64,000 nt of DNA from NCBI RefSeq assembly GCF_964213995.1, contig NC_135816.1, positions 46,748,001-46,812,000 of the forward strand, read 5' to 3'. The notes below the pieces were generated by a model. That model was not told the origin of the DNA. It ran no database searches and saw nothing but the letters and a program-made list of their open reading frames with translations. A program made the translations under genes and the position numbers. Source of the DNA: Mustelus asterias. Lineage: Eukaryota. Shown here piece by piece: positions 17,427-62,737 of this stretch (within the stretch, counting starts at the first letter, position 1; each line of letters opens with the position of its first letter).

Positions 17427-17822
17427 CCATTTAAGGGAGTCAATGGTATAGTGGTATTATCACTAAACTATTAATCCAGAAACTCAGCTAATGTTCTGAG
17501 GAGCCAGGTTCAAATCCCACCACAGCAGATTGTAGAATTTGAATTCAACAAAAAAAATCTGGGAATTAAGAATCTACAGATGGCCATGAAACCATCGTCA
17601 ATAGTCAGAAAAACCCATCTGGTTCACTGATGTCCTTTAGGGAAGGAAATCTGCCGTCCTTACCTGGTCTGGCCTACATATGACTCCAGGTCCACAGAAT
17701 GTGGTTGACTCTCAATTGACTTCAGGCAACTAGGAATGGGCAATAAATGCTGGCCAGCCAACAATGTAAGAAGTTTAACACCACCAGGTTAAAGTCCAAC
17801 AGGTTTATTTGGTAGCAAAAGC

Positions 17823-17859
17823 CACAAGCTTTCAGGGCCTCAAGCCCCTTCTTCAGGCG
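17823..17859 (-). ncRNA. Minimal type I hammerhead ribozyme motif (sense to the eif4e1b pre-mRNA)
   Basis: CGC-CUGAAGA-A-GGGGC(UUGAG)GCCCU-GAA-AGCU-U^GUG on the - strand. Confidence 0.65.
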
Positions 17860-17880
17860 AGTGGGAACAGAATTCCCACT

Positions 17881-17917
17881 CACCTGAAGAAGGGGCTTAA
17901 GACTCCGAAAGCTTGTG
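17881..17917 (+). ncRNA. Minimal type I hammerhead ribozyme motif
   Basis: CAC-CUGAAGA-A-GGGG(CUUAAGA)CUCC-GAA-AGCU-U^GUG. Confidence 0.65.
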
Positions 17918-18817
17918 GCTTTTGCTACCAAATAAACCTGTTGGACTTTAACCTGGTGTTGTTAAACTTCTTACTGTGTTTAACCCCAGTCCAACGCCGG
18001 CATCTCCACATCATGACAGCCAACAACATCCATGTCCCACAAATGATTTTTTAAAATGCACTTCTGGCTAAGATAACAAGGCAAAACCAGAAAACCATAT
18101 ATTAGATGGAGTATAGATTTATGGAAATATTCATTAAATGGTCATCTCCAATCATGCCTAATTTAGTTTACCATCCTTTTCTTCCAGTTTGCAACATGGA
18201 TTTTCTTCAATAAAGCATTTAAATTCCAATAGGCTTTCAATCATCATTATCTGATAAATTCCAAACTACTTCTCAATTTTAATCTCAACATTCCCTCAAC
18301 CAAATTAGTTTGGTTTTACAGTAAAACTACAAACCACCCAAACAGATTGTAACTGCACTTGTAATGAGTTAAATCCAGTTTATCACATTTATTGTAACGC
18401 GACGTGAGTCTTGTGCCTGACCACAGGAAATGATTTAAATCGGTGCTTGTTAAAATCAACAGAAGGTAAATCACAAAAAAATTCTAAGGTGCTCCATGTA
18501 GAATTAGCCTTCTCTATTCTCTTCTGTTGTTCGACTCCATCCGAGTCTTGCTTTAGTGAGTTTGAGAGTGCGGTCAGGCGGACAATTAAAAATACTGGTG
18601 TTAAATTACATTCTCCTAACCTGACAAAGTTACATACTCTTGACAAATTGTACTACAACTGTCCCCCGGGCAAAGAAACTTTGGTGTAATTAAAACGTAG
18701 CGCTGAAAAAAAACTTCGAACAAATTAAATGAGAAGTTATAATTCACAGGTGTCCCTTTTACATCTGAGCAATTGTATGGCACTCATTCACAACGCCGAC
18801 TACCGAGACTCACTCAC

Positions 18818-18835
18818 CGGCTTTGCTACCGCCAT
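18818..18835 (-). CDS. eif4e1b: eIF4E family member 1B, coding exon 1 (MAVAKP)
   Basis: ATG GCG GTA GCA AAG CCG|GTGAGT. 18 nt, phase 0, the same size as the MATVEP first coding exon of class I eIF4E. Confidence 0.8.
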
Positions 18836-20496
18836 ACTGAAATGTAGAACCTCCAAATTACCTGCCTCGTCCCACATTTATGGGGCTAATTGATCATTTG
18901 TTAAAGGGATTCCATGCCAACTGCTTAGTCTGATTTTGTAACTGTAAAAGAATCATCAAGTTCGTCCCTATTAACATTTTAGTAAATCATCTGACACTTC
19001 GATGTGTTTTTTTTCTGGATTAACCGTATTATAACCCCGTTCACATAAAGTGGGGGCAATCTCCCACTTCATTTGGAACGTTTGTTAATGGAAAGGGGGG
19101 AAAAAGCTGTTCACAAAGTGTGATAACGAAATTTAATCGGATATGGTCCCTTAAAAATACAAACAATAACATTATGTATGTATGTTTTAGTATTTTCAAA
19201 TCGTTTGGGTAACATAAAATGTAGCAAATCACCAATGGATGGCAAAATCCACGTGGAGTCAAAAAACCAAGTGTTTTGCTAATTGATGAAGCTGCCCAGT
19301 TCTCCAAACCCCATTAAATGACTAGGAAAAGAGAAGATGGTTCAGGTGAACTGTGGGCAAGCACTCAATACATTGGTTTTGGAGCATGCATTTATATGAA
19401 GGAGCTGGACGAAATCCTCTTCGTCATGAAGTGACCTATTCGTGCCATTGACACCACTGACCCTTTTAGTGCATAACAGGCGCTGGTGTCCTATGGGCAG
19501 ATTGCACATGCTTTGCATCTTTCTGTCAATTGATACTAAGACCCTGTGGATATTTTTCTACTAATATTGCTAAGTGGGAGGAAAACAGTCTGTTTCTGGT
19601 GCAACCAGACTTGCCCTGAATTCTTCCATTGCTCCTCCTCATCTTGGATATTCTAAAACAATAAGAGTGACAGACTACCTAAAACAATAGTTCCTGACCA
19701 ATAAGCAAATCATAAAAAAAGAACCAAACTCAGAAAGAGCCTTAAAATGTTTTTTAAACTCTTAGTCTAGTCTCTTTAAAGGCTTCTGGGCAAGCACCGC
19801 ACATCCACAGCCACATACGTTCATTTTATGTGGACAAGTAATATGACTGCCCCACTGGCAAAAAAACCCAGAAACGTGTGAATCACTGGAGACTAATTCT
19901 ACTGGCGAATAATTCTAGAATCGAAATATTTTTTTCCCCTGAGATGTGGGCAACATCAGTTTTTATTGCCCTGTTCCAGATTTCCTGAGGGCATTAAGGG
20001 TAGACCATATAGTGTTGACTGAACCACATGTAGGTCATGGCTGGTCAGTTGAATTTCCTTTCTTTAGGGCATTAGTGAGTCACATTCAACATTTAGGACT
20101 GCAACAAGTATAGTCATTTTCTGATGCTAGCCTGCAAATTAGCAGATGGAATTCAATTTCATAATGTGTGGTCTGATGGAATTATGAATTCCTAGACTGG
20201 CTTGGGTGGCGCAGTGGTTAGCACTGCTGCCTCAAGGAGCAGGGCTCCGAAAGCTAATGGCATTTGCTACCAAATAAACCTGTTGGACTTTAACCTGGTG
20301 TTGTTAAAACTCTTACTGTGGATAGGGAATTCACAGAGATAGCTAGATTTAATATGAATGCATAGCTTGGTGCCGAAACCCAGGGTCCCTTGCAGAGTAT
20401 GAATTAACATGGAGATGTTGAAACAAAACTAAGAGTTGGTTTAAAATACAAACAGGTACTCAACAAGAGAAACAAAATAAGCATCTGTGTATTTGA

Positions 20497-20681
20497 ACAC
20501 AGTAAGAAGTCTCACAACACCAGGTTAAAGTCCAACAGGTTTATTTGGTAGCAAAAGAGTGGCTTTTGTGACACATTTCCACTCCATCTGACGAAGGAGC
20601 CGCGCTCCGAAAGCTTATGGTATTTGCTACCAAATAAACCTGTTGGACTTTAACCTGGTGTTGTGAGACTTCTTACCGTGC
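20497..20681 (+). mobile_element. Penelope-derived fold-back element (a further one-armed fragment lies at ~20234-20320)
   Basis: Inverted CAGTAAGAAGTCTCACAACACCAGGTTAAAGTCCAACAGGTTTATTTGGTAGCAAA arms around a hammerhead core. Confidence 0.85.
20584..20620 (+). ncRNA. Minimal type I hammerhead ribozyme motif (Penelope-associated)
   Basis: CCAU-CUGACGA-A-GGAGC(CGC)GCUCC-GAA-AGCU-U^AUGG: 4-bp stem I, 5-bp stem II, palindromic AGCU in place of stem III. Confidence 0.75.
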
Positions 20682-23600
20682 TGTTAGTTCACCAATGCTC
20701 TATCCATGCTAATATTTCACCCCCAAAATTATGAATTCTAATCTTTGGCAGTAACCTTTTAGGTGGCATCTTACTGAACATCTTTTGGAAATCCAAATAT
20801 ATCTGCTCGTTCCCCTTTATTCACCCATTTTGTTACATCTTCAAAGAACACTCTAATAACTTAGCCAAACATGTGGACTCTGCTTGATTGTATTTTTATT
20901 TTCTAAATGTCCTGCTACCACCTCCTTAATAATGGATATTATTATTTTCCCAATGCCAGACCACCTGGCCCATGGTTTCCTGCTTTCTGCTTCACTCGTT
21001 TCTTGAATAAGGGTGTCATATTTACAGTTTTCCAATCGCTGTGACCTTTCCAGAATATAGACCAGAATTTCACTTTGCTTGGATAGGCATGCATCCAACC
21101 TGAAAGCAGATGAAATGGGGCAGCACGGTGGCACAGTGGTTAGCACTGCTGCCTCACAGCGCCAGGGTCCCAGTTCAATTCTGACCTCAGGCCACTGTCT
21201 GTGTGGAGTTTGCTTGTTCTCCCCGTGTCTGCATGGGTTTCCTCCAGCTGCTCTGGTTTCCTCCCACAGTCCAAAGATATGCGGGTTAGGTTGATTGGCC
21301 ATGCTAAATTGACCCTAGTGTCAGGGGGATTAGCAGGGTAAATGCGTGGTTTCTGGGAATAGGGTCTGGGTGGGATTGTGGTCGGTATAGACTTGATGGG
21401 CCAAATGTACTCCTTCTGTACTGTAGGAATTCTATGATTCTATTCTATGAAATTGCACGAAAAGACATCAGATATGTGTTCTGACATCATTGTGCACTCG
21501 CGCACTATTTCAGTTGGCGGGTATGTGCGAGAGTCAAAAATGTGCCTGCTGATAATTAAGCAGGCAATTGAGCACATTAAGGAGTCAGTTGAATGCAATT
21601 TTACATGGCCTGCCTGCTTTTACAGTTTGCAAGCAGTCTGATTGGCCAGGCAAATTTTACATTTTAGCTGCGACCCCGATCCAAGGCGGGATGAATTGTC
21701 GGGGCTGAAATAAAATTTATAAAGGTGCCTGGGGACTGAGGTTTGTGTTTGAAGGTGCTGCCTAAAAACTCTGCATAGTTTTTCCATTGCAATTTATTTT
21801 TTACAGCTCTGCCGCTCCCTGAGACAACTTCACAGCAGCTATTGAGGAAGCATCTTAGAAGCACCAGTCCAGACCCTACTTTTCCTCAGTGCCACCCTCT
21901 TCCCATCTTGCCTGGGAAGAGCACTGCTGAACCTTTCACAGTGCACATTTCACCCTGCCTGCCTGTTAATTGGCCAGCCAGTGTGAAATCATGCCCTGAA
22001 GCGTTTTGCTCCAGCCTCGAGGCTGGCTGAGTGCACACTCCTGACGGATGAAAAATTCAAGCCATGTGGGATTTTAGAAGATGACAACCCAATGCACCTA
22101 CTCTCCCTGCAGTCACTTTCTTTAATTCTGACCATATGATTCAAGCCATCAGATCCAGGTACTTGTCAGATTTTAGCCCCATTAGTTTTCTTCTTGTTTT
22201 TTTCCCCAATGATCATGAATGTTTTAAGTCCCTCCCTCCTTCTTGCCTCTTGCTTTCCTACTATTCTTGGGATGCTTTCTGTGTCTTCTACTGTGAAGAC
22301 AGAGACAACATAGTTTTCAAAGCCTTTGCCATTCCCTCATTTCCCATTAATAATTCATCAGTCTCACTCCTTATGGGGCCAACACTTACTTTAGCTACTC
22401 TCTTCCTTTTTATGTACTAGTAGAAGCTTTTGCTGTTATTTTTATATTTCTTGCCAGTTCTTTTCCTAGTCCAATTTCTCCTCTTTTTCTAGTCTTCCTT
22501 AATACAAGGACACAAGATCCCTGTGTATTACAGCATTCTGAAGTCTATCTCGATTGAAAAATATTCTGCTTTCATATATTTTTTAAATGTTTCCAATCTT
22601 CTAAGCTACCAGTAATGTTTGCAGCATTGCACTTCTTGTACATTGTGCAGTAAGTCAAATGGCCTCCTCCTGTTCCTTGTTCTTGACTTCTTTAGTTAGC
22701 CATGATTTATGAATGATTTATCCCTCTGGTGGTATATTCCTTTCTCAATGGAATATAACTTTGTTGAGAATTATTGCCATGACCACATAAAAGGCATTTC
22801 CTCAAAGTAGTCTATGAGCTAAAATTTGTACGGCTGTTTGCAGTTCCCTTTTAATTTGCAAGTGATTCAATTTAAAAATACCCAACAGCAAAGCTTTAGT
22901 CTTAAGTAAGATAAATGTTTGTTTATTATAAAAATACAGCCATAAGGTACTTAAGTAAAATGAATAAAGTTACTAATTGGCAACATACAAAGATTAAATG
23001 TGGATAAGTATCAAAGATGAAAAGATGCAACATCCTTTTAGATATTGTTGCAGGCCCAGAACTTACAGCTGAAGTATCGGTTGTCTGAAGCGAAAGGTTG
23101 AAGAGTTGTGCTCAGCAGCTGTGATGACTTCTGCAGTCAATTATTTGCCTTCTCAGGTGGACTCAGCAGATTTTGGGAGAGAGAAGGTTTCTTGTTCGCC
23201 ACTAGTTCTGTAGTTACAACACTTGAGGTTTTCTTAGATTATTTTCCAGCAGAAGAGTTGATTTATGGATAGCTTGCATTTTGTTCTCTCTTGGCCAAGA
23301 ACCCTCTGTGATGTTGTCTCTTAGAGTTCCTCCTGGTAGTTCTGCATAACATGACTGTTCTCAGTCAGATTTTATTCAGTTCAAAACTCAAAATGGCTGC
23401 TATCCCAAACTGTTGAATTATACTCCATATTAGGTTTTGGATTAGCTCAGGTCTGGGGTGTAGTCCCATCCATTGCCTTTTAGCAAAAGTAATTAACTTT
23501 TCAAATGTCTCAGCCATTAACTTGAAAGGCTCCCATTCTTCCAGGTTTGGTGATATTAGAAAGAACAATTCACACTTTCAGGGAAACCATTGTAAATGAG

Positions 23601-24860: not shown

Positions 24861-24879
24861 TCCCTTTCTCCCACGCTTT

Positions 24880-25189
24880 GAATCATAGAATCATAGAATC
24901 CCTACAGTGCAGAAGGAGGCTATTCAGCCCATCGAGCCTACACCAACAACAATCCCACCCAGGCCCTAAACCTATAACCCCACATATTACCCTAACACTA
25001 AGTGCAATTGAGCATAGCCAATGAACCTAACCTGCACATCTTTGGACTGTGAGAGGAAACCAGATCACATGGAGGAAACCCACACAGGAAGAATGTGCAA
25101 CTCCACACAGTTACCCAAGGCTGGAATTAAACCTGGGACCCTGGCGCTGTGAGGCAGCAGTGCTAACCACTGTGCCACCACGCTGCCCC
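24880..25189 (-). mobile_element. HE1-type SINE
   Basis: Reverse-complement homolog of 21117-21449 with a (CATAGAAT)n tail. Confidence 0.85.
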
Positions 25190-25479
25190 TAATTTTAGTT
25201 GGCATTACCCTTTGGCAATCCTGCTCTATCACACTGCCCTTTCCTTTTTTCACTTTCCCAAACTCCCCTCACCTGAACCCTCCCTCCCCATCTTATTAGT
25301 CTGTAGTTAATGAGTTTGTAATTTATTGAAAACTTCACTTTAGGAAATAAGTATGACCAAATTAAATCGCTCCAACACCTTCCAGCTGTGGAGGCACTAT
25401 ATATTTTTTAATTTTTTTATTGACACAAAATCTACATTGCAGAATTTTATGTAGTGTGTGCTGTCATGAGCCTAATTCA

Positions 25480-26166: not shown

Positions 26167-26177
26167 TGTTCCACTGA

Positions 26178-30560: not shown

Positions 30561-31868
30561 GGTACTTATGTGGCGGGGAAGGATGCTGCTAAGGTGGTAA
30601 TCTGGCCAATTCAGGGTACAGACCTACAAACATACAATGATGTCCATAATTGGCAATCACACCAAAAGCAAGTGGAAATATAAAATCAGGAATAAATTGT
30701 TGATAATAATGAAAAAAATGTTTTCAGGATGCTTCATGGCTGAGTTGCAATTTTAGGCTGAACATTTCTATGCACCCCGAGTCCAGAGTTATAATGCCTC
30801 CTGCAAATTGAAAAGTGGTGCCTTTTGTCACCTGGAATTTTATTTCTCCTACTTTCATGCACCACAGAATTAGAATTGACTCCATGACTTTGCTGCATAG
30901 AATCATAAAAGTAACAGTATGACTACAATCTAAAAAGACTATGCAGAAATTGCACTGACATAATGTTTCGAATATAGCAAATAAAAACATCCTGAATGGT
31001 GCACCAAGTTCTATCTCTAAAGGGATATGAGTTTTCTTTCATGTACATTCTACATTCTTATTAAAAATAAACACAATGCTACAATGTGTTCTATATCTTA
31101 TGTCTGCTGCTTGGACCAGCGTGCAGTTGTTTGTGGTCAGAGTGACTGAAAGAAAAGCGAAAAGGAAAACAAAATTGTTTGATTAAATCGTAAGTGGGGG
31201 TTTTTTTTGGAAGGAAGAGGACATGATATTTTTGGATAATTATGGGACAACATAATTGCACTCAGTGTACTGACCAACTGCTGAATTTTACTGATGTAAG
31301 GAAGCAACTTTTCCTGAAATTCTAGATACAAAATTGCTATACTCAAACCCCAATTGAAAGATCTGGATGACGACCATCTCACCATAATAATAATTACATT
31401 CACAGTGTTTTTGAAACAGTTGAAAGATGTCATATTGACCACGTTAGACTGTTCAAGCTGTGGACCATGTAATTCTGAAATTGATACAGATGTGCACAAT
31501 CACAACCCTATCTTTTGTGTATTCGCACTGCATGGTGTTCAAGGGTAGAACTTTCCAGTTAAAAATGATAGCACTTCACAATAGAAGGTCAGACAATTTG
31601 TTTAAAATATTCCTGCATTCATACATTAATTCTAATTTTCTCCACACTGAAGTTAACTTACATTAAAATCAAACACTCCACAGTGAATCCGGGCTTGCAT
31701 TCAAGAAACGGTTAGAGGATTATTTTATTTAAATCCCACAAAAGGTATTGATTCAATTTAAGCATTTAATTTTAAATTGACTTGAAAAGTGGCATTGAAA
31801 AGAAGGAATTGAAATAAGTAAAGTCTCCTTTGAATAGGAGTCAAAGTATACTGATGCTTGCTTTTTAG

Positions 31869-32020
31869 TCGCTGAGAAGACAAAGGAGCAGGCCTCGTTG
31901 GTGGGTGGCGCAGTTATCACTGGGGTCTCAGCTGTGGCTCAGAAGACAGTGGATGGAGCTGGGAGCATTGCAGCTGCCACCGGTCTGGTGAAAAAGGAAG
32001 ATTTCCCATCTGAACTAAAG
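31869..32020 (+). CDS. sncb: Beta-synuclein, third coding exon ([51 protein letters not shown])
   Basis: TTTTTAG| ... AAG|GTAAGC, 152 nt. The end [14 protein letters not shown] matches beta-synuclein TGLVKREEFPTDLK rather than alpha TGFVKKDQLGK. Confidence 0.93.
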
Positions 32021-33114
32021 GTAAGCCTTCATCAAACATGCCCACCTCATCCTCTGCTGCTGTAATCATACAGCAAACCATCCTGATTTAACTCACTTTG
32101 TACGCTTGTTTTCAGAAAACATATAAACAGACTGAAGATCTTAATTTTACTTAGATTTTAATATTAACAAGCTGTTTTAAATGCCTCAGGATTTGAGATA
32201 TACTCTTCCTAATAATTTCCAATATAGGCAAGAATTTGCGTAGAAATTCAATGGGTCTAAATTTGGCTGTGTAGTACCACTTTTTAAGGCACACTGCGGT
32301 CATCTAACACTCAAAGTTGGGGTCGGAGAAACATGAACTGACCTTTAATGGGAAATGGACAGAATTCCATCCTAGTAAAAGGGGTTTGTGCATGCACATC
32401 AAATGACTATTCGCAGCATGAAGAGCAGGTAAATTAGATGTCTATCAGTGTTTAACACAAATTTGACACCATCACTGCCATTTCCAAACTTCATATTTTG
32501 ATCAATACCCAACGCAGCAGAACAACCAATTCCCTGCCTTAACCTGGCACAGCAGAGCATGACTTAAAATGGACTGAAGGCTCCACCCCCTGCCACTTCT
32601 TTCAAATCTGTGCTATTTAAAGGGATCATGACCCACCTACAGATTCATTGCTGGATTATTTCTTAGTGTATTCACACTGGTTGTTGGTGCAATTGTACTT
32701 GTTTTTGGAACATTGCTATATTTGACTAAAGTTTGAATCGTGTTCAGGTGCTGTATATCCTTTGCCCCAGTACTCCTGGAAAACGTTTGTTTCCCCACTG
32801 GCTGCAGGTTAGGTGCTAGAAGATTGCTAAGGCTTCAATAGGGAAGACTGCAGATGACGTTAGACAGCGACCTCAAGCTGCTTTGTGCCAAGAGGACCCA
32901 AATTCTGGCTGTACTATCTCGGTCTGGCCTGCAGCAGTCAGGTCTGGCTGGCTGATGGGGAACAGCGAGGGCACTGGCAGATTGACTGCAATAGAAACAC
33001 AAATACTGAAATTCTGCAAATGGATGACAGGTTTGTGCTCCATCAAGCCACTGCCACTATTCCGAGGAGCTGCCTCATCAATGATACTGATTTATTGGCA
33101 GACAGATTGATGGA

Positions 33115-36132: not shown

Positions 36133-36296
36133 AAACAGTAAGAAGTCTCACAACACCAGGTTAAAGTCCAACAGCTTTATTTAGTAGCACAAGCACAAGT
36201 GACTTGTGCTACCAAATAAACCTGTTGGACTTTAATCTGGTGTTGTGAGACTTCTTACTGTGCTTACCCCAGTCCAACGCCGGCATCTCCACATCA
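36133..36296 (+). mobile_element. Penelope-derived fold-back element inserted in CR1
   Basis: Same arms and tail. TSD TCGGTCATA (36124-36132, 36297-36305); removing the insert restores the CR1 sequence. Confidence 0.88.
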
Positions 36297-36501
36297 TCGG
36301 TCATAGAAGACAGAGGGTAGCAGTGGAAGGGTGCATTTCGAGATGGAGGACTGTGACAAGTGGCGTTCCTCAGGGATCAGTGCTGGGACCTTTGCTATTT
36401 GTAATATATATATAAATGATTTGGAGCAAAATGTACCTGGTTTGATTAGTAAGTTTGCGGACGACACAAAGGTTGGTGGATTTGCGGGTAGCGATGAGGA
36501 C

Positions 36502-41024: not shown

Positions 41025-41250
41025 CAATAGAAACAGAACATGCTGGAAAAACTCAGCAGGTCTGGTAGCATCTGTAGAGAGTGGAAAAAGTTAATATTTG
41101 AGTCTGTATGACTTCTTTAGGGTCAGAGTCAAGTGGAATTCAAAACATGAAGACTTCCCACAGATGCTGCCAGACCTGCTGAGTTTTTCCAGCATTTTCT
41201 GCTTCGATTTTGGATTTCCAGCATCCTCAGTATTTTGCTTTTATATTACT
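41025..41250. mobile_element. Third inverted-repeat family, probably Penelope-derived (related interrupted copy at ~51425-52640)
   Basis: ATGCTGGAAAAACTCAGCAGGTCTGGTAGCATCTGT ... ACAGATGCTGCCAGACCTGCTGAGTTTTTCCAGCAT inverted arms. Confidence 0.6.
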
Positions 41251-42796: not shown

Positions 42797-43112
42797 TGAT
42801 GCGCTACTCAAACACGAGGCCTGATGCTCGGTAAATGAAAGGCTTGTATTTACTGTAATGAAGCAGCCAGAAATTATATACACTATCCCAGACTGAAGGG
42901 GTCCCGGCCAGAGCAGGGACTTTTATACCTCTCCCAGGAGGCGGAGCCCGACTGGGATGTGCCACAACACTACAGTACAAAGGTGTAACAACCCCACCCT
43001 AACCCCAACAGCAACAATAGCACAACCCAACAGTAGCATATGTACATCCTTGTAGTACTGGCCAGCCCCTGGCTCAGTACTATCCAGTGGGAACCAACGA
43101 TGGTTCACCACA
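42797..43112 (-). repeat. 3' LTR of the Gypsy element
   Basis: Direct repeat of 47216-47531, preceded on the - strand by the PPT. Confidence 0.97.
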
Positions 43113-43174
43113 TTCACCCCTCCTTTGAGAACAAAGGCCGGCGGGGTACAAAAACAGAATAAAGTGTCAGCAGT

Positions 43175-46100: not shown

Positions 46101-47164
46101 TCCAGGATGATCGACGCCACCGTTGGTTCATGAGCGCCACTGCAGGCAGCTGAAATCAATGAGGAGGACCCCTGCTGGTCGTTCGCGGTCAGTGTCGACC
46201 AACATGGCCGCTCCCATGAGTCGCACGTGGGTGAGGGCGCCAAACTCAGCGACCCCTGGTGGTCACACACCTCCGACTCTGTCGACCGTAATGGCGTCGT
46301 CCTGGCCTCGCACGTGGACGAACCCCTCGATGACTTCGACGACGAAGACCCGAGCTCTGAAGAATCGCAGGCCGCACTGCCGTTCCTGGGTTTAGATCGG
46401 CACACTTTCGAATAGTGCCCTTTCTTACCGCATGTGGTGCACAACACAGCTTTAGCGGGACACCGTTGCCGAGTATGCTTCGCTCCCCCACAGAAGTAGC
46501 ACCGCGGGCCGCCCGGGGCTGCTGCCGTCGTCTGGCCCGTGTGTGAGCACGCCATTACGCAGCATTTCGAACCCGAGGGACGAGGAGGGATTGGCGACTG
46601 CTCCTGCCACGTTGTCTCCACATGGTCCTCCGGATATAATACTAAGCTTTTGGAGGCCGTCTCGAGCATCTCCGCTAGCTCGATGGCCTGGGTAAGATCA
46701 AGGTTACCCTTCTCCAACAGTTTAAGTCGAATGTACGACGATCCGACCCCCGCCACAAATGCATCTCGGGCGAGGTCGTTCATACTCTGCTCAGCCGACA
46801 CAGCTTTGCAGTTACAGCCCCTGGCTAGCTGTAGGAGCTCGTTCGCATATTCCTCCATCGTTTCGCCAGACTGCCGTCGTCGAGTGGCTAGGAGGTAACG
46901 AGCGTGTATTTCATTGGGTGGTTTGATATAGCGCTTCTTCAGAAGCTCGAGGGCCTTAGTATAATTGGTGGCCGCACGGATCGCGAGGTAGACAGTGTCG
47001 CTTACCCTCGCATGGAGGACCCGGAGTCTGTCATCATCTGTGGTGACCGCTGCGGAGGCTGCCAGGTAGTCATCGAAACACTTCAGCCAGTGGTCGAAGG
47101 TGTTAGAAGCGCCCACCGCAGGTGGATCTAGTGTAAGGCGTTCCGGCTTCAGGATTTGCTCCAT
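43175..47164 (-). CDS. Gag-Pol polyprotein, 1329 aa (gag with two Zn knuckles, protease, RT, RNase H, integrase)
   Basis: First ATG after the 5' LTR at 47164 (MEQILKPE). CYFCGGAKH and CTTCGKKGH knuckles; LFDSGS protease; IDLRSAYHQ, PFG and YLDN in RT; SDASD RNase H; HHCC and VDFKGP...VERE integrase. The PR-RT-RH-INT order is Ty3/Gypsy. Confidence 0.95.
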   Translation of the reverse strand: MEQILKPERLTLDPPAVGASNTFDHWLKCFDDYLAASAAVTTDDDRLRVLHARVSDTVYLAIRAATNYTKALELLKKRYIKPPNEIHARYLLATRRRQSGETMEEYANELLQLARGCNCKAVSAEQSMNDLARDAFVAGVGSSYIRLKLLEKGNLDLTQAIELAEMLETASKSLVLYPEDHVETTWQEQSPIPPRPSGSKCCVMACSHTGQTTAAAPGGPRCYFCGGAKHTRQRCPAKAVLCTTCGKKGHYSKVCRSKPRNGSAACDSSELGSSSSKSSRGSSTCEARTTPLRSTESEVCDHQGSLSLAPSPTCDSWERPCWSTLTANDQQGSSSLISAACSGAHEPTVASIILDQAKPHRLDKSMMNIQVNDHVIYCLFDSGSTESFIHPDTVKRCGLQIQPAKQTISMASRSRSVAVLGSCVVTLKVQGTVYERFKLLVLPYLCAPILLGLNFMVHLRSVILQYGGPLPSLAVGKQQQPPNCPTRPACSLSTLKITTPSLFQNLVPGCKPIVTKSRRYSAEDRIFIRSEVQRLLKERIIQPSASPWRAQVMVVKSGNKPRMVIDYSQTINRYTQLDAYPLPRISDMVNQIAQYRVFSTIDLRSAYHQLPIRPEDRQYTAFEADGCLYHFLRVPFGVTNGVSVFQRAMDRMVDQNGLRATFPYLDNVTICGHDQQDHDTNLLNFLRTASRLNLTYNREKCVFRTRRLAILGYVVENGVIGPDPDRMRPLSELPLPASAKALRRCLGFFSYYAQWVPNYADKARPLIKSTTFPLTPEARLAFDKLKADIAKATMHAVDESIPFQVESDASDFALAATLNQAGRPVAFFSRTLQGPEIRHSAVEKEAQAIVEAVRHWRHYLVGKRFTLITDQRSVAFMFNNTQRGKIKNDKILRWRIELSTYNYDIMYRPGKLNEPSDALSRGTCASIEEDRLQALHNDLCHPGVTRLYHFTKARNLPYSVEDVRSVTRSCRVCAECKPHFYRPDRAHLVKATRPFERLSVDFKGPLPSTDRNVYFLNIIDEYSRFPFVVPCSDTSAATVIKAFRDLFTLFGYPGYIHSNRGSSFISDDLRQFLLSYGIASSRTTSYNPRGNGQVERENATVWKAVLLALKSKGLPVSRWQEVLPDALHSIRSLLCTATNATPHERMFSFPRKSSSGTSLPSWLTYSGPVLLRRHVRARKSDPLVEQVHLLHANPQYAYVAYPDGREDTVSIRDLAPAGDVATPVAPIPPVTNPLTLVSSPDTARAASGPLLNPFTPMYSLPEPRRWSPLQGVSGPHGLPSPQGQPACESVEEQLDAALGRTPPQVPTPVSPPVLRRSQRRCGPPDRLNL

Positions 47165-47215
47165 ACTCTCTCTTTTTTTTTTCTTCGACGAGAGTTTAAC
47201 GACAGTAAATAAAAT

Positions 47216-47531
47216 TGATGCGCTACTCAAACACGAGGCCTGATGCTCGGTAAATGAAAGGTTTTTATTTACTGTAATGAAGCAGCCAGTAATTATATAC
47301 ACTATCCCAGACTGAAGGGGTCCCGGCCAGAGCAGGGACTTTTATTCCTCTCCCAGGAGGCGGAGCCCGACTGGGATGTGCCACAACACTACAGTACAAA
47401 GGTGTAACAACCCCACCCTAACCCCAACAGCAACAATAGCACAACCCAACAGTAACATATGTACATCCTTGTAGTACTGGCCAGACCCTGGCTCAGTACT
47501 ATCCAGTGGGAACCAACGATGGTTCACCACA
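47216..47531 (-). repeat. 5' LTR of the Gypsy element
   Basis: Direct repeat of 42797-43112, upstream of the gag ATG. Confidence 0.97.
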
Positions 47532-47802: not shown

Positions 47803-48414
47803 GTGTGGAGATGCCGGTGTTGGACTGGGCTGGGCATAGTAAGAAGTCTCACAACACCAGGTTAAAGTCCAGCAGGACTTTTTGGAATCACGAGCTTTCG
47901 GAGCACTGTTCCTTCATCAGGTGAGTGGAGAGGTAGGTTTCACAAATACAGCATATATAGACAAAGACACAATGTAAGATAATGGTTGGAATGTGAGTCT
48001 TTTCAAGGTGGCTGTTTCCTCCAAGGCGGCCTTCAAGACACACGACAACGCAGAATCACCGAGGAGAAACTGATAGCCAAGTTCCGCACACATGACGATG
48101 GTCTCAACCGGGATCTTGGGTTCATGTCACACTACATGTAACCCCCACCATTGGGCTTGGGCTTGCAAAATCCTGCTAACTGTCCAGGCTTGAGACAATT
48201 CACACCTCTTTAACCTGTGATAATCCCTCTCTCCACTTGCACTGTCTGTACCTGTAAAGACTCGCATTCCAACCATTATCTTGTAATTGTGTCTCTGTCT
48301 ATATATGCCGTGTTTGTGAAACCTAGCTCTCCACTCACCTGATGAAGGAGCAGCACTCCAAAGCTCGTGATTCCAAATAAATCTGTTGGACTTTAACCTG
48401 GTGTTGTGAGATAA
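47803..48414 (+). mobile_element. 5'-truncated Penelope-like element with an inverted pseudo-LTR
   Basis: 48019-48141 reads LQGGLQDTRQRRITEEKLIAKFRTHDDGLNRDLGFMSHYM*, resembling a GIY-YIG endonuclease C-terminus of Penelope-like elements. Flanked by inverted copies of the 3' terminal sequence. Possible TSD CTGGTGT (47800-47806, 48415-48421). Confidence 0.85.
47889..47923 (-). ncRNA. Minimal type I hammerhead motif with one stem II mismatch (partner copy at 48336-48369 has lost the G of GAAA)
   Basis: CAC-CUGAUGA-A-GGAAC(AGU)GCUCC-GAA-AGCU-C^GUG. Confidence 0.6.
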
Positions 48415-51400: not shown

Positions 51401-52302
51401 ACAAACATTACAAGTTTCAAGTGAAAAAATATTGTGGATACTGAAAATCTGAAATAAAAGTGGAAAATGCTGGAAACACTCAGCAGGTCAGGCAACATGT
51501 GTGAATGGGGAAACAGAGTTAATGGGCTGAATATATTAGAGTTTATTGCGGTGGAACCAGGACAGCAGAGCCCATTTAATTATAGGTGGAGACCCAGGCC
51601 AATCTTGCAGCAGGGGGTAAAAACCTGTACCAGTTATATTGGGGAGGAGAAGGGATGATACAGATTCCCCACTGCCAGTGGTGGGATGTCAATTAGGCTC
51701 ATTAATGAGCCAATTGACACCCATTAACCCTGAGCCCACTGCAATTTTGTGACCACTCTGGGATTAAACGGGGGCTGCACTGCATTTCACACCTTCCAAA
51801 GACCGTTCAGCAAACCCTGTCAGGTACACGCTGCCTGATCAATGGATCCGGCATCAGGGAGGGGGGTGTTGCTCCTGCCCTTACCTCTGACCCTCCTGCT
51901 ACCCCTCTCCTGTGACCTTCCATCCTGTGACCCCCTATTGTGCCCTCACTACCTTTGGTCTGGGGTCCCATGATGACCAGTGTCACCTTTGTTGGGTGCA
52001 GTGACACTAACTGCCACCGCTTCCCGACGGCATTGGTGTTTTAAGGAGCTTCTAGCCTTGGATTGGATGGCAGTTCTTGGGGGCGTGAATTAGTTGCCAG
52101 GAACCTCAATCTCAGGGAAGGCTCAGCGGTGGCCATTTAAATGCCTGAAAGAAATTTGATTCCATCAGGCCTCCCCTACAGAGACTGATAAGGTTTCCCA
52201 GTGGGTTATCTGAATCAATGGCCCGACAGAATCTAGACCAATGTTTCAATGTTTGATAACGCTTCTTCAGCCCTGGAACATTAACCTTGTTTCTCTCTCC
52301 AC

Positions 52303-52597
52303 AGTGGCTTGCACTGCTGCCTCACAGCATCAGAGACCCGGGTTCAATTCCGGCCTTGGGTGACTGTTCTGTGTGGAGTTTGTACGTTCTGTGTGGGTTT
52401 CCTTCTAGTGCTCCAATTCCCTCCCAAACTCCAAAGATCTGCGGGTTAGGTTGATCAGCCATGTTAAATTGGCCCTTAGTGTCAGGGGGACTAGCAGGGT
52501 AAATATGTGGTGTACGGGGATGGGCCTTGGTGGGATTGTTGTCGGCGCAGGCTCGATGGGCCGAATGGCCTCCTTCTGCTCTGTAGGGATTCTATGA
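52303..52597 (+). mobile_element. HE1-type SINE
   Basis: Head, B box and tail as in the other copies. Confidence 0.8.
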
Positions 52598-53277
52598 TGC
52601 TGCCTGACCTGCTGAATATTCCAGAAATTTCTGTTATTCCAAGTTTCAATATTTATGTGTTATCCATAATTTAAAAATAATAATTGTCTTTTCCTAACTG
52701 AAATTATTAGCAAATTATTCATATATTAAAAAAACATAGATGAGAGCACACGCAATATGATTAAAACACACCTCCATTTAATAATTAAACACAGCTACTG
52801 AATATGCATTTTTCATACACAACAGACTGTCGCATTTAACAAGTATTATATTCTCAGAGGCATAATTTAAGAGTCAATGCAATCCAGTTTAGCTGTTTTA
52901 CATAAAGTATAATTAATTAACTTAATGTAAAACAAGATTAATATGCAGGATGAAAAGAAGATGCAAGATGGCGGGTCCCTGAAATGAACTTGTTAAATTG
53001 CTAGAAAATCCACAGAAGTACAACTATTCCAGGCATAATATTTGCTAGTTGCAATGCAGTTTTGAAAGTGCATATTACTCAAATAAAATAGAACATAATG
53101 TACAAACTAGCAATAAAACAGGCGGCAAACTATTACCAGAACAAAAATGTTATAGTTGTTAAAACATAGGTCAGAGTTTCCTTTGCACCCAATGACTCAT
53201 GTAATTGGGTCATAAATGTCAACACCTGACATTAAAGATTGAGGAAATCTGAGCAGTGTTATGCACTGAGCCGCAAT

Positions 53278-54122: not shown

Positions 54123-54369
54123 AATGTGTCCAGATACAGAGTTTGATAAATAGGTAAGAAAGATTGAGGAAATCTAAAGCATGCTTTGGACAAACACTTG
54201 TGCTCTCCAAATTTCCTCTTATCTTTTAATGCTGTTTATTAAGCTCTGCACTCAGACACATCACAGCTGACTTTAGTGGCTTAGTCCCCAAGGTAAAGAG
54301 TGGTACACAAATTTCCTGCAATTGCAAGATGTGAAATTAAGTCTAGAGTTTCGGGGATATGCAAGCACC

Positions 54370-57900: not shown

Positions 57901-58038
57901 GTGGCGGGATTTTCGAGCTACACGCGCCCAAAGACAGTAAATTCCCACCCAAAGTCAATGGACCTTTAAATGGTCCACCAAATTTCCTGTCTCGCCCACT
58001 ATAATTCCCTTGGTGGGAGGGACAGGAAAATTCCGCCA
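57901..58038. mobile_element. Short MITE (related copies at ~24549-24686 and ~35070-35175)
   Basis: Inverted ends GGCGGGATTTTC / GAAAATTCCGCC; the core AAATTCC..CCC.AAGTCAATGGAC resembles 24586-24625. Confidence 0.5.
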
Positions 58039-58089
58039 TTCAATTCTTTCCGAACTACATACATCGGTCATGTTGCACTCTGAGTTGCT

Positions 58090-58460
58090 TCAATGAAGTT
58101 GCATGCAGTTAACAGCCGGAGGGATTTTAACAGGTTACCAGCCCTTCGGCATACATTGGCTGAAAGGCCTTACACAATGGCCTTTCCCCAATGTGCCTTG
58201 GCAGTGGCTGCCCAAGCTTGAATGCGTCCCTCAGCACATAGTCCTGAACTTTGGAATGTGCCAGCCTGCAGCACTCGGTCAAGGACAATCCTTTGCACTG
58301 GAAACATGTTTCGGTCAGACCAAAGAGCATCTTTCACCGAGTTGATGATTCTCCAGCAACAGTTGATGTTTGTCTTGTTGTGCGTCCTTGGAAACAACCT
58401 GAAGAGCAGAGTTCTGTGAACTGCTTAGGATGAACCTCAACAAATATCACTGCATTTCTC
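58090..58460 (-). mobile_element. Tx1/L1-like LINE ORF2 C-terminal fragment
   Basis: Frameshifted NINCCWRIINSVKDALWS and ECCRLAHSKVQDYVLRDA segments. Confidence 0.6.
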
Positions 58461-60462
58461 TCCAGATCTTCTTTACAAAGCTTAGTTCATGAACAATTAA
58501 GGATGAGGAGCAAACGCTAGCCTTGCCAATGATGGCCATTCCTACAACAGAATAGAGGAAGCGCTACTTCAAAATAAGGATTTCCCTAGCCCCCTAACCT
58601 TATCCCAATGGCTTTTACAGACTCCATCCCTGGAACCTCAGTGGCTGATTCTTACCTTCCAGAATGGTCAAATTAGAGGAATTAATGTCGACAAATAGGT
58701 GCATGAAGGGTGCATAATCAGCAATAACTTGTTAATTATGCCCCCTGACCACAATTTAATGCTGTTTTAGGAAGCATTAAAATAATTCAGCACATAGATC
58801 AATGTGAGAGAGAATTGGGAAGTCAATTTTATTAGTTAGGCATCATCAATATCCTCACATTCAAGACTAATTGAGCCATCACATTGCATCATGAAACCTT
58901 CATATTAACTTATCCAGTGATCAGCTATATTTATGATATAAAATGACTATTTGAATACAAGATGGCATAACTGTAATGAGCAGTCAAAGACATTGTAGAA
59001 AAGTCACATGAAACTGCTTCCACATTATTTATTTTGAAAATGAGCATTAGGGTGGCCACAGCAAAAGTTGTGAAAAATCTTCCATAACAAAGCATCTGAA
59101 GAGAGGATAACATTTACTATTACATTAATTTGGTGGCTTTGAGGATATGTGTAATGTAACAAATTGGATGCATGGAGTCTACCCTCTCAATATAGGGTGG
59201 GCCTGAAAATGACTTGAAAGGTGGTCTAGATGTTGAAAGGATGGACAACAACTCCACGAAAAGCTTCAAGATCAACATTATTGATGTGTGCATTCAAGCA
59301 CGCATTCCCCATGTTCTGTAATTGTTCCAAACTGCAGAACCCAGATTTTAATTTACCTTCTTGTTTCTTACCTTTCCACAGGTAGAATGATTCAGAGGGG
59401 CAGCAAACTCCTGCCTACTCCTGCTCCTAGTTCTTATGTTCTTATATAAACAACGTTGATGTTTAACTAAAAGGAACAATGACAAAATCACTTCAAACTA
59501 TATGAAGAATGCAGTTAAGCTGTAATAATGTTGGCAAAAGATGGACACAGTTTATTTTCAAATGGAAGACAGTAAATCTGAAATCTAAACAGCCACTTCA
59601 ATAATGTTTGAATGGATAATTAATACAAACCTTTCAGATGAAGAGATAGTTCATTTCGATACCTTACAGGGCAGGGAGTCCACCTGATTACTGTATTCAT
59701 TCCAAACCAGGAAAACAAATGGGGTTAGAGTTGGACTCGCAGTTGGAAATCCTCAGTTGATGATCTTCTGGTTGAAGCAATGACACAAATCTAGACAGTA
59801 GTGCTTCAAATTGCCAAGTGGATTTCATCATTTAGAACTGTCAGTGCTTGGGGCTTACAAGATCTAAGTTCCTTCTGTAGGGTAGGTTTTCATCTCCAAT
59901 TGCATTTTCTACCCAATATACAACTGCTCAACTGATACTACATTGAGATGAATGGATCCATGATAAGCAGGTGATCCGCTCCATCAGGTTATCACTCAAG
60001 TGGAGAAATCAAAACATTACTCCTGTATTTAACTGCACTACATCAGTCCGAGCAGAACCAGCCTAGTGGGTCTTTCTCTTTTTCACAGTGCCTCGTTATT
60101 TACAGATAGATGTTGTTGCAACAAAATAAAAATGAATATTTGCTCGAGGGATCAGTAGCCATTTGTCAGCATTGAAATTAACATGCTCCATTGAGAGATA
60201 TTAATCTATGTTGAGGCAATTAAAGACTAACGAATCAAAGCTTGGGTCCTGAAAAACACTTACAGCGGTTTCAACAATCAAAGACTAAAAACTGCAAATC
60301 ATGCATATGAGTGAAGTTTGGCTTAGGTACATTCAAGGTATCTCTGATTAGTTGAGTAAATAAGATACAATAGGAGGAGAGCTCTCAGTAATTAATAATT
60401 TGTTACCCTACTGGGACAGTTATCCCTGCTACATCAAGGAGCAATATTCTTGTCTGAATACA

Positions 60463-61790
60463 TGGAATCATAGAAAGGTTATAACAAACAAAAACACCTT
60501 TGTTCCTGTGTCAGCTCTCCACAAGAGCGAATCCCCTAGTTCCACTCCCTGGCCTTTTCTCCACAGCCCTGCAAATGTTTTCTCTTCAGATAATTGTCCA
60601 ATTCTCTTTTGAAAACCTTTGATTGAAGCTGCCTACATCACCCTCTCAGGCAGATCATTCCAACCATCCACTGCACTAAAAGGATTTCCCCCATGTTGCC
60701 GCCACTTTCCTAGCCAATTACCTCAAAATGATATTGTCCAATCCTTGATCCCTCAGCCAATGGGAGCAATGTCTCCTTATCCACTCTCCATTGTGACTGC
60801 TCATGATGCTGACTGCCTCCACCAAATCTCCCCCCAATTCCCTCCTCTCTATGGAGAACAGCCCCCTGAAGCCACTCCCATAATCCTCCTCTGCATAATA
60901 GCTCCATATTCTTCCCATAGTGCGGTGCCAAGGACCGGGCACAACACTCAACTGATACCAATCCAGTGTGCTGTATGGATTTGTCATAACTTCACTGCTC
61001 CTGCATACCTCATCCTCACCCATGAATCCCAGGATCCATATGTTTCACCAACTGCTCTCCCAGCCTGTCCCACCTCCTTTGATGACCTGTACACCTACAC
61101 TCCCAGGTCCTTCTACTCCTGCATTACCCCACAGAACCATACCCACCATTCTACATTGACTCTCCTAGTTCTCCATAGTGAATCAATCCACACCTCCCTG
61201 TACTATATTTGCCACCCACCTTCCCACTCCGCCAGCTTGTCTATGTCCTCTTGAAGTTCATCACTATCCCCCTCACAGTTCACTACAACTCCAATTATTG
61301 TCATCTGCAAAGTCTACAATTATGTTCTGTAAACCCCAAGCCAGGACATTAATATATAGCAAGAAAATCAGAGATTCCAACACCAACACCTAGGCAACCC
61401 CACTATATATCTTCAAGCATCACAAAAAACTGTTCGCCACCACTCTCTGTCCCCACCACTTAGCCAATTTTGTGTTCCTACTGCTACTGTTCCCTCTCCC
61501 TTCGCCACAAGTTCTAACCTTCCTCTCAAGCTTGTCATGTGGCACCTTATTAAATGGCCTCAGGAAGTCCATATACACCGCATCAACCGCACCAACCACA
61601 TAACCCCCCATCAACTTTCTGTTACCCCATCAAAAAACCCAAGCACCTCCATCAAATATGACCTGCCCCCAATAAATCCATGTTGATCCTCCTCCAACCA
61701 ATCTACATTTGTCCAAATGACTGTTATCCTTTCCATTTCTATAGATCTTCCCACCACTGAGGTCAAACTGACTGGCTCATAATGGCTGAT
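60463..61790 (-). mobile_element. Decayed CR1 LINE
   Basis: AVDAVYMDFLRPFNKVPHDKL (61420-61614) and RELGGDLVEA remnants. Confidence 0.75.
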
Positions 61791-61884
61791 TTTTCAGTAC
61801 AAATACCATGCTTGTTCCCGGAAATCACACAAAATTTACTTTTGTACTTTCAGTCCAATCTCACATCGATAGTCTCAGGATAAA

Positions 61885-62143
61885 GAGATGAGCAGAAATT
61901 ACTTCACTCAAAGGGTTGTGAATCTTTTGAACTCTCTACCTCGGCAAGTTGTGGGTATTCTAATGTTGAATATATTAAAGGCTGGGACAGAAGAGTTTTT
62001 GGTCTCTTAGGGAATTAAAGGATATGCGGAGTGGGCAGGCAAATGGAGTTGATGCCCAAGATCAGCCCTGATCGTACTAAATAGTGGAGCAGTCTCGACC
62101 GACCATCTGGTTTACTCCTGGTCTTATTTCTTGTGTTCTTAAC
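61885..62143 (+). mobile_element. CR1 3' fragment
   Basis: TTCACTCAAAGGGTTGTGAATC... through the TTCTTGTGTTCTT tail. Confidence 0.65.
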
Positions 62144-62567
62144 TTCATCTGCTTTCTGTGTTTTCTAGGTTGTTTTGTAATTCTTGATTAGCAGATAATA
62201 ACTGGACACTTAGAGTATTCAAATGCAGTTCATCTGGTGGCAGTGTACCATTTGTAGCCCACAAATCCCAATCCAACCAATTATCCTTTAACTTGGAATG
62301 AATTGGAGATGTCTCTTGTTGCTGTGCCAATTGCCATTTGCTGTTTGCACATTGAGCAACGTAGGAAATCTTTTTTTGCCTTTTCTGACAACAGTATTTC
62401 CCCACATTTTTATTTAGCAATCTAACATTTACTTTCTCATGAGATCCTCGTACTTGAAGTACATAGAATCATAGAATGGTTAGAACACAGATTTCAGCTT
62501 ATTGTGCCTATGTCAGCTCTCTGCAAGAGCAATTCTGCTGGACCACTCCCCTGCCTTTTCCCTATAG

Positions 62568-62737
62568 TAACAGTTTTAACAACACCAGGTTAAAGTCCAA
62601 CAGGTTTATTTGGTAGCAAATACCATTAGCTTTCGGAGCGCTACTCCTTCGTCAGATGGAGTGGAAATCTGCTCAACCTGGTGTTGTTAAAACTGTTACT
62701 GTGTTCACCCCAGTCCAACGCCGGCATCTCCACATCA
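62568..62737 (+). mobile_element. Penelope-derived fold-back element
   Basis: Same family; 12-bp TSD TTTTCCCTATAG (62556-62567, 62738-62749). Confidence 0.88.
62623..62659 (-). ncRNA. Minimal type I hammerhead ribozyme motif
   Basis: CCAU-CUGACGA-A-GGAG(UAGCG)CUCC-GAA-AGCU-A^AUGG on the - strand. Confidence 0.75.

Follow-up and report, generated by a model that had tools for sequence, protein, structure and literature searches.

The seven related insertions described here are most probably separately made, heavily 5'-truncated products of an autonomous endonuclease-positive Penelope-like element (PLE) of sharks with a Neptune-type linker. They comprise 13 arms (203 arms per Mb) within the window, the whole 64,000-nt stretch of DNA that was analysed, and six of the seven are inverted pairs (fold-backs). 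In the master element the hammerhead would form part of the pLTR, with the two 3' termini about 60 and 100 nt downstream of it, and would be carried along whenever cDNA synthesis gets that far. The hairpin insertions and their ribozyme motifs are real; we believe that they represent ordinary PLE biology, and that a separate mobile ribozyme class is very unlikely.

Layout of the insertions

The insertions were 87–610 bp long, with single arms of 34–416 nt. The 3' ends pointed outward in all six fold-backs, and a tail of about 36–40 nt was carried by exactly one arm in five of them. E1 (97 bp, 17331..17427) joins a tail arm (17331-17394, minus strand) to a tail-less arm (17394-17427, plus strand) without a ribozyme core, between target site duplications (TSDs) at 17319-17331 and 17426-17438. 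E2 (251 bp, 17766..18016; TSD 17755-17764/18017-18026) has a tail-less minus arm (17766-17867) and a plus arm (17868-18016), whose tail (17975..18016, plus strand) runs from an internal terminus (about 17975-17978) to an outer terminus (about 18013-18016); in the same arm, 17988-17995 can pair with 17940-17947 as an internal inverted repeat of 8 bp. E3 (87 bp, 20234..20320, plus strand) is a single tail-less arm which starts inside the core, its 5' half missing, adjoins a SINE fragment (20204-20234) and has no TSD. E4 (186 bp, 20497..20682) consists of a minus arm to 20557, a filler A, a 10-nt piece (20559-20568) and a plus arm (20569-20682), with neither tail nor TSD. A joint insertion of E3 and E4 was ruled out by their different subfamily signatures and the lack of a TSD. 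E5 (165 bp, 36133..36297; TSD 36124-36132/36297-36305) lies inside a LINE RT frame and comprises a tail-less minus arm to 36196 (or 36199), a filler AA and a tail arm (36199-36297, plus strand), without a core. E6 (610 bp, 47803..48412; TSD 47800-47806/48415-48421) joins a tail arm (47803-48005, minus strand) to a tail-less arm (47997-48412, plus strand) with an ORF end and the pLTR, and E7 (172 bp, 62567..62738; TSD 62556-62567/62738-62749) joins a tail-less minus arm (62567-62674) to a plus tail arm (62675-62738).

The at least seven related insertions claimed by the first-pass annotation were all present, and its five distinct TSDs of 7–13 bp also stood. Perfect boundary duplications of 13, 10, 9, 7 and 12 bp were found at 17331, 17765, 36133, 47803 and 62568 (5/7), each with P of at most 0.008 under a boundary-anchored null of 5000 random pairs (P = 0.008 for at least 7 bp and 0.0012 for at least 9 bp); in several of them 1–3 nt also match the element end. 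No TSD was found at 20234 or 20497, and no AT-rich ATT target preference was evident in the five TSDs. The six inversion junctions in the window all differed, with microhomology or filler at junctions such as that of E6 (an imperfect microhomology of about 9 nt). The truncation points of the two arms were 9, 5 and 0–3 nt apart in E1, E2 and E5, and the asymmetry was about 250 and 80 nt in E6 and E7. None of the 13 rows of tandem repeats in the window overlapped an element.

Both arms carried the same subfamily signature in 6/6 fold-backs (about 0.002 if pairing were random). At reference position 17959, the two arms of E1 differed (G versus T), as did those of E2, and the arms of E4 differed at the subfamily site 17919-17920. 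At the 5' end, the tail arm of E2 exceeded its partner by 5 nt, the tail arms of E1 and E7 both stopped at the same base (17950), and the tail-less arm extended as far or further 5' than the tail arm in four of five cases. In a second repeat family of the window (41026-41245), an extension was likewise seen on one arm only.

Hammerhead cores and the parent element

The five CUGANGA...H cores claimed by the first-pass annotation were recovered when the descriptor search that it had proposed was run on the window. The pattern CTGANGAA-N9-18-GAAAGCTH gave five matches against 0.01 expected, a count reached in 0/100 shuffles, and a relaxed descriptor with pairing checks returned the same five at 0.07 per shuffle (30 shuffles). 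They are minimal type I hammerheads with the AGCU palindrome, as claimed, whose self-cleavage is predicted from the sequence: 17884..17914 (+) in E2 (N7=A, H17=U, one C-A mismatch in stem II), 17826..17856 (-) in E2 (N7=A, H17=U, a G10.1-U11.1 wobble), 20588..20616 (+) in E4 (N7=C, H17=U), 47892..47920 (-) in E6 (N7=U, H17=C, one A-C mismatch in stem II) and 62627..62655 (-) in E7 (N7=C, H17=A). The cuts proposed earlier, 3' of 20616 and between 62627 and 62626, agree with these cores. The intact cores were confined to only four of the seven insertions, however; E1 and E5 have none, E3 lacks the 5' half, and the plus arm of E6 holds a broken core without G12 (48339..48366, plus strand). Seven of the 13 arms extended to the 3' half of the hammerhead.

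Stem I was paired in 24/24 cells, and 51 of 54 core stem cells were paired, compared with 26–50% in slid controls. The earlier claim of stem covariation held for three pairs with double changes among six related sequences of about three subfamilies, but stem II pairing was not always kept (unpaired in 3/30 cells); the covariation score of 0.43 (9/500 shuffles) is one that relatedness alone can give among six related sequences. An Rfam scan returned 13 matches at E<=5, with no hammerhead model among them, and therefore the cores were identified from the descriptor and from the available text of PMC4209133. Ten of these 13 matches were miRNA families, all below the gathering score; the hairpins mimic microRNA precursors, and miRNA identity was rejected as a below-threshold hairpin artefact. 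In E2 and E6, to which the counts of pairing outside the core are limited, the antisense arm pairs with 27–30 of 29–31 core bases and would lock the core in a duplex; the fold of the whole E7 element gave no hammerhead fold. A fold-back has its two cores on opposite strands, so that no cis dimer can form.

The Penelope origin claimed for the family was supported by the 47803 copy (E6), which contains the C-terminal codons and stop of a PLE RT-GIY-YIG ORF (47998..48141, plus strand). Here 35 of 41 aa are identical to P0004, a shark RT-EN protein (85% identity to its C-terminus; RVT_1 E 5e-9). The window holds only these last codons, and the single ORF with RT and C-terminal GIY-YIG is known through relatives; Pfam gave no match on the 47-aa ORF fragment alone, and P0003 matches GIY-YIG above the cut-off. 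Protein comparison of the ORF end gave seven matches among nine candidates, and all three named ones were from sharks. The linker of P0004 reads CX4CxxC, and CX2-5CxxC, as defined in PMC8557442, was seen by eye in P0004, P0005 and P0006. On sequence grounds, the insertions are 3'-terminal pieces of a shark Penelope-like element that encodes GIY-YIG and has the Neptune/Nematis linker motif. The vertebrate PLEs in 10.64898/2026.07.22.740005 are only Neptune or Poseidon. A 20-nt family pattern had no match in viral contigs and one in metagenome contigs (L001), which was dismissed as chance in a GC-rich bacterial-looking gene. The presence of several subfamilies was borne out; their recent activity was supported only in part, with arm differences ranging from 0/26 (E7) and 1/25 (E1) to the 18/160 of the longest copy.

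Exact junctions were read for the six fold-backs only, and the read data come from relatives, the best run sharing 0.53 of sampled words. In raw WGS run X22, 114,916 of 13,065,944 reads aligned to the element, with a peak depth of 93,372 (48.6 arms per Mb) and a tail depth of 0.49 of the peak. Loose 3' ends piled up at 17977, 18013 and 18014 with unlike flanks (agreement 0.47, 0.39 and 0.35), which indicates two 3' termini. G>A at G12 reached 5.2%, compared with 6.1% and 6.0% at two tail CpGs; this decay at the neutral CpG rate indicates that there is no purifying selection in the copies. Changes at the subfamily level affected N7 (C 24%, U 40%), stem II pair 3 (54%), loop II, H17 (A 59%) and N1.1 (A 45%), but an excess conservation of the core was not apparent from these reads, since the non-core stretch 17925-17961 was also without a row among the best 40 of 163 variant rows and depth across the 5' core was only about 6,500. 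Inversion joints numbered 434, of which the best 15 were seen in detail, and the largest lay at subfamily clip points (17903, 17921, 17923 and 17928), where other subfamilies stop aligning. The joints 17945/17983 and 17947/17983 were set aside as probable mis-splits from the internal 8-bp inverted repeat and a 1-nt indel at 17982.

Routes to the fold-back insertions

Among the possible routes, we lean towards end-joining of two cDNAs made by target-primed reverse transcription, one from each nicked strand, at the two known start sites. The RT-GIY-YIG protein would nick both target strands 7–13 nt apart, and each 3'-OH would prime a cDNA on the same RNA, with the internal start site used by one and the tail end by the other. 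Both cDNAs would end early, their 3' ends would be joined via short microhomology or filler, and gap filling would leave an inverted pair with 3' ends out and a tail on one arm, between TSDs. Twin priming is known from L1. The layout, the TSDs, the unique junctions, the two termini, the parent ORF and the neutral decay are shown by this analysis; that one RNA was primed twice and that ends were joined is what we infer. The differences between arms at 17959 in E1 and E2 and at 17919-17920 in E4 fit two templates or gene conversion better than one RNA. In vitro, with a Poseidon and not a Neptune element, both strands are cut and extended, there are two start sites matching the tail, and insertion needs no ribozyme (PMC11167929). 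Selection for the ribozyme probably acted on the master elements, in which pLTRs in tandem on the same strand could dimerise via the AGCU palindrome; in the fold-back copies, dead on arrival, it is probably cargo. Dimer cleavage was reportedly described by Lunse et al. in 2017.

Self-priming on an antisense transcript, giving a head-to-head hairpin intermediate that is resolved by the endonuclease with the tail left on one side (the model of PMC3846280), is rather doubtful for these copies. The near-symmetric centres of E1, E2 and E5, the subfamily common to both arms in 6/6 and a variant common to both E7 arms and found in no other arm would suit it. However, both outer ends coincide with two fixed termini, which in PMC11167929 serve on sense RNA as start sites of target-primed reverse transcription. 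In addition, E1, E2 and E4 have shared variants at which their arms disagree, E6 and E7 are strongly asymmetric, and E5 carries filler instead of a snap-back loop. The tail arm is also not a snap-back copy of the other arm, because the tail-less arm extends as far or further 5' in 4/5. Later loss of unstable centres from once-longer inverted insertions by microhomology-mediated repair is quite unlikely: it would leave microhomology or filler at junctions and spare the TSDs, and microhomology deletions occur in Penelope copies (PMC3846280), but the smallest copies show some of the lowest divergence and the longest one shows the highest, and PLEs are as a rule heavily 5'-truncated when they insert (PMC8969392). 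It is unlikely, although compatible with double target-primed synthesis, that a minority of insertions was copied from hammerhead-cut RNA, in which case their inversion junctions or 5' ends would begin with the first base past the cut. In E5 the tail arm begins with N1.1 and the second arm either there or 3 nt upstream, and the 10-nt inner piece of E4 also begins with N1.1; in run X3, four of the best 12 filler rows end at 17914, which may be one locus with the kind of joint not given. This pattern was spotted after the fact in one or two of seven insertions, and in PMC11167929 none of the RNA reads ended at the cut site, uncut RNA being the main substrate. A truncation pile-up at the cut site was rejected and kept as a minor possibility, since depth in run X22 rose by about 310 per base over both 17903-17913 and 17913-17916 (31,269 to 32,199) without a step, which bounds the class near 3%.

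The first-pass annotation had also raised a mobilised non-autonomous ribozyme retroelement class, in which each hairpin would be a unit that is transcribed and then moved again by the PLE protein, its RNA being processed by the ribozyme. Each fold-back retains its 3' ends in cis, pLTR sequences are sufficient for mobilisation in trans (PMC3846280), PLE-derived non-autonomous retrozymes are known (10.64898/2026.07.22.740005), and some joints recur in 2–3 further runs (e.g. 17918/17928 and 17923/17923). Nevertheless, we consider this reading highly improbable. Identical hairpin junctions at many loci did not appear: the six in the window are unique, in insertions of 87–610 bp, and among the best 15 of 434 joints in the relative's reads none is dominant, the top one, at clip points, reaching 293 of 114,916 aligned reads (0.25%). 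A whole core is missing in 3/7 insertions, it is locked by the antisense arm in two of four core-bearing ones (E2, E6), cores on opposite strands form no cis dimer, no tandem array covers any element, and G12 decays neutrally. Small recurrent junction families are possible. The other reading in the annotation, that the tiny hairpins are truncation products, gained support from the six different junctions and the three insertions without a whole core.

Relation to known elements

Complex insertions of endonuclease-positive PLEs, with a 5'-truncated copy, an adjacent inverted truncated copy, a 30–40 bp tail at one end and a TSD, have already been described (PMC8557442; PMC3846280). The shark insertions share the inverted head-to-head 3' ends, the tail on one arm and the C-terminal GIY-YIG ORF with the pLTR right after it, with TSDs of 7–13 bp compared with 8–10 bp in PMC3846280. 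In contrast, their arms are so short that no direct pLTR tandem or ORF body is left, and their density is very high. With the metazoan PLE pLTR hammerheads, according to the available text of PMC4209133, they share the conserved core, an extra base between 9 and 10.1, G10.1-C11.1, a 4-bp helix I, the palindromic 15.1-16.1 segment, many sequence families per genome and mostly single motifs in truncated copies, with some opposite-strand pairs 100–700 bp apart; helix II is 5–6 bp here and 7–8 bp in the schistosome motifs, and sharks are not named in that text. In PAc, the Poseidon element of Anolis (PMC11167929), a hammerhead likewise lies upstream of the tail and of the two termini that delimit it, and a stem-loop can form over the start region (here weak, z -1.66), but the shark parent has the CX2-5CxxC linker, which Penelope/Poseidon lack. 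Non-LTR retrozymes (PMC7229834; 10.64898/2026.07.22.740005) are also non-coding, PLE-related and of hammerhead type I, and occur in a chondrichthyan genome. They are same-strand tandem repeats of a fixed unit, with dimer-competent ribozymes and circular RNAs, whereas the shark copies are scattered inverted pairs that vary in length and often lack a core, and their cores are single or on opposite strands instead of whole hammerheads in each same-strand unit.

Our literature searches found no description of this family among shark Penelope elements with hammerhead ribozymes, and no study of the PLE mechanism under Penelope twin priming or inversion; how PLE inverted copies form and what the hammerhead does in vivo are stated to be open in PMC8557442 and PMC11167929. 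PLE hairpins can pass for microRNA precursors, which is a warning for annotation. The density of about 49 arms per Mb, together with the subfamily markers that both arms carry, makes it feasible to survey junctions, the number of templates and truncation at the cut site. If some copies did come from cut RNA, shark genomes would record in fossil form that a minimal PLE ribozyme cleaved in vivo, and one-RNA twin priming could be directly tested against self-priming.

Fold-back insertions and their boundaries

A BLAST search of the window with the 47803 copy of the Penelope-like element (PLE) found seven insertions with 13 arms, an arm being one copy of the element's 3' end, and no further ones. 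The insertions lie at 17331 (E1), 17766 (E2), 20234 (E3), 20497 (E4), 36133 (E5), 47803 (E6) and 62567 (E7), and their arms were placed on the plus arm of E2 (17868-18016) as reference. On this reference, E1 covers 17950-18014 and 17941-17974, E2 covers 17868-18016 and 17873 to about 17974, E4 covers 17872-17978 and 17920-17983, E5 covers 17915-18014 and 17912-17982, and E7 covers 17950-18014 and 17868-17975. One arm of E6 runs from beyond the reference to 18013 and the other to about 17966, and the single arm of E3 covers 17890-17978. Six of the seven insertions are inverted pairs with the element's 3' ends at the outer borders in all six, which agrees with the first-pass annotation of at least seven related, mostly inverted insertions. 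The tail, the 36-40 nt or so between the internal and outer 3' terminus, is present on exactly one arm in 5/6 fold-backs, and E4 has no tail.

The distinct 7-13-bp TSDs claimed for five copies were confirmed. Perfect boundary duplications of this length were found in 5/7 insertions, compared with 0.8% (at least 7 bp) and 0.12% (at least 9 bp) of 5000 random boundary pairs. The junctions showed 1-nt microhomology in E1 and possibly E7, about 9 nt of imperfect microhomology in E6, and filler in E4 and E5. The tail arms of E1 (window 17394) and E7 (window 62675) end at the same reference base, 17950, with different partner arms; RT may pause there, or joining may favour this base. E3 (window 20204-20320), which has no TSD, overlaps by 1 nt with the adjoining 5' fragment (30 nt) of a tRNA-type SINE, and either a template switch or a deletion may have produced the chimera.

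Parent element and hammerhead cores

The link between the 47803 copy and a GIY-YIG-like ORF end also held. Positions 47998-48141 encode the last residues of the ORF, 35 of 41 being identical to those at the C-terminus of P0004, an RT-bearing shark protein of 643 aa, and the related database protein P0003 had a GIY-YIG match above the cut-off. Three shark genera account for all named relatives of this ORF end. A CX4CxxC linker precedes the endonuclease in the related proteins P0004-P0006, and in the available part of PMC8557442 this motif is present in Neptune and Nematis and absent in Penelope and Poseidon. The parent PLE is called putatively Neptune-type here, after its linker motif. The shark database protein P0005 is a PYRIN domain fused to the C-terminal half of the PLE ORF, and the fusion may be a gene-model artefact.

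Five cores fit the proposed hammerhead pattern, against 0.01 expected by chance, and a relaxed descriptor gave the same five; they are distributed over only four insertions, while two insertions have no core and one has half. One further arm lacks G12 of the core. Across six aligned cores, 51/54 cells were paired (26-50% in slid controls), and double changes occurred in three pairs: 2.1-1.1 (C-G/U-A), 2.4-1.4 (C-G/U-A/U-G) and stem II pair 3 (A-U/G-U/G-C). The covariation claimed for the stems amounts to these three pairs, with three cells unpaired; pairing and double changes agree with a hammerhead but, in six related sequences, are no measure of significance. Folded on their own, the cores form helices I and II (folding z -1.5 and -1.7). 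Degenerate hammerhead-like words at window 52244-52300 (minus strand), beside a SINE-interrupted copy of a second repeat family, fail the relaxed descriptor.

The two cores of a fold-back sit on opposite strands, and a transcript therefore carries a single sense core that lacks a dimer partner in cis. Of the 29-31 core bases, 27-30 are paired with the antisense arm in E2 and E6. The accessible text of PMC4209133 reports no cleavage by the minimal hammerhead monomer and low cleavage by dimers, and already records single motifs in truncated PLEs and opposite-strand pairs. According to PMC11167929, the Anolis PLE ribozyme is assisted by protein, and insertion in vitro does not need it. Retrozymes require same-strand tandems (PMC7229834 and 10.64898/2026.07.22.740005), and none was found over the insertions in the window.

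Insertion mechanism

PMC11167929 reports that a PLE protein nicks and extends both target strands and that RT starts at two sites bounding the tail, which directly explains why the outer ends fall on two fixed termini and are flanked by TSDs. We propose that two primings on one RNA would be followed by end-joining of the cDNAs. In 6/6 fold-backs both arms have a common subfamily signature, for which random pairing among three signatures would give a probability of about 0.002, and the tail-less arm extends equally far or further 5' in 4/5; both results argue for double priming on one RNA, and the latter is expected from a trailing second polymerase and impossible from snap-back of the first cDNA. 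The less likely rival route, self-priming on an antisense template (PMC3846280), draws support from centres that are nearly symmetric in E1, E2 and E5. Divergence is lowest in the smallest copies, which speaks against loss of the centre after insertion. What counts against a single template is that in both E1 and E2 the left arm has G at reference 17959 where the right arm has T, and that the E4 arms differ at 17919-17920. The T>G variant is confined to the E1 and E2 left arms (window 17370-17394 and 17766-17790), being absent from the right arms and all others, and could come from gene conversion between these copies, 430 bp apart, or from two templates.

A perfect 8-bp inverted repeat (window 17940-17947/17988-17995) pairs body with tail, so that the internal terminus lies within a stem-loop. 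It resembles the start-site stem-loop of the element in PMC11167929 (partial text), with z -1.66, and is invariant, without covariation.

One or two junctions start at the predicted cut, between reference 17914 and 17915. The E5 tail arm and the inner 10-nt piece of E4 both start at the base after it, and the second E5 arm starts at this base or 3 nt further upstream. In X3, a sequencing run of a relative, 4/12 filler rows among the matches listed end at 17914, the joint kind not being given and one locus perhaps accounting for them. Depth in another such run, X22, climbs by about 310 per base on either side of the cut site, and this equal rise bounds the cut-site class near 3%. We consider it unlikely that a minority of insertions was copied from hammerhead-cut RNA.

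Truncated inverted copies, tails of 30-40 bp and TSDs are all well established for PLEs (PMC8557442, PMC3846280 and PMC8969392). The insertions of the first-pass annotation are real, correctly described and mostly ordinary PLE biology. Our literature search found no account of this shark PLE family, the supplements of PMC4209133 and 10.64898/2026.07.22.740005 may list shark motifs, and the available part of PMC6155905 adds nothing on sharks.

A second, unrelated repeat family at window 41026-41245, also at 51426-51523 and 52596-52635, has the same 3'-ends-out fold-back, with an extension of about 40 nt solely on the 5'-shorter arm; a TSD was looked for in this family and not found. The same layout suggests that the insertion signature is generic, and we take this family to be probably another Penelope-like one. 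The window is eukaryotic and repeat-rich, of a shark-type genome to judge by the named relatives of the ORF end. It contains LINE RT frames as well as an LTR retrotransposon whose ORF looks intact; this retrotransposon (42797-47515) has 300-nt direct repeats 98% alike and an uninterrupted 1388-aa frame matching protease, RT, RNase H and integrase. The repeat labels HE1-like SINE, CR1-like LINE and gypsy-like are our assumptions. A short exon-like stretch at 4822-5295 (minus strand), without Pfam match and presumably resembling a tetraspanin N-terminus, adjoins a region (5100-6060) that is rich in GC and CpG and contains a 34-bp tandem repeat; the insertions would sit upstream of this stretch.

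Copies in reads of relatives

Reads from four runs were aligned to 17868-18040; these are treated as runs of relatives, since even the best contains a share of 0.53 of the words sampled from the 47803 copy. Of the 13,065,944 reads in raw run X22, 114,916 matched, and the peak depth of 93,372 in 1922.5 Mb corresponds to 48.6 arms per Mb, versus 203 per Mb in the window. Tail depth was 0.49 of peak, which fits a tail on about one arm in two. Loose 3' ends cluster at 17977, 18013 and 18014 with unlike sequence beyond, which is the pattern of two termini and dispersed flanks.

It had been asked whether identical hairpin junctions recur. X22 gave 434 joints, of which the best 15 all join opposite strands, and the largest had 293 reads (0.25% of matched reads). 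Large joints fall at positions where the alignment of other subfamilies ends (17903, 17921, 17923 and 17928) or at the indel at 17983, so each pools many junctions. There is no dominant fixed hairpin in these reads, while small recurrent ones may exist.

Among the best 40 of 163 variant rows, the ribozyme varies at N7, stem II pair 3, loop II, H17 (U or A, no G) and N1.1, the first base after the cut, and the sole core change is G12 to A (5.2%), at a CpG site. This rate equals that of two tail CpGs (6.1% and 6.0%). On these rows, the subfamilies thus obey hammerhead rules and the inserted copies decay neutrally.
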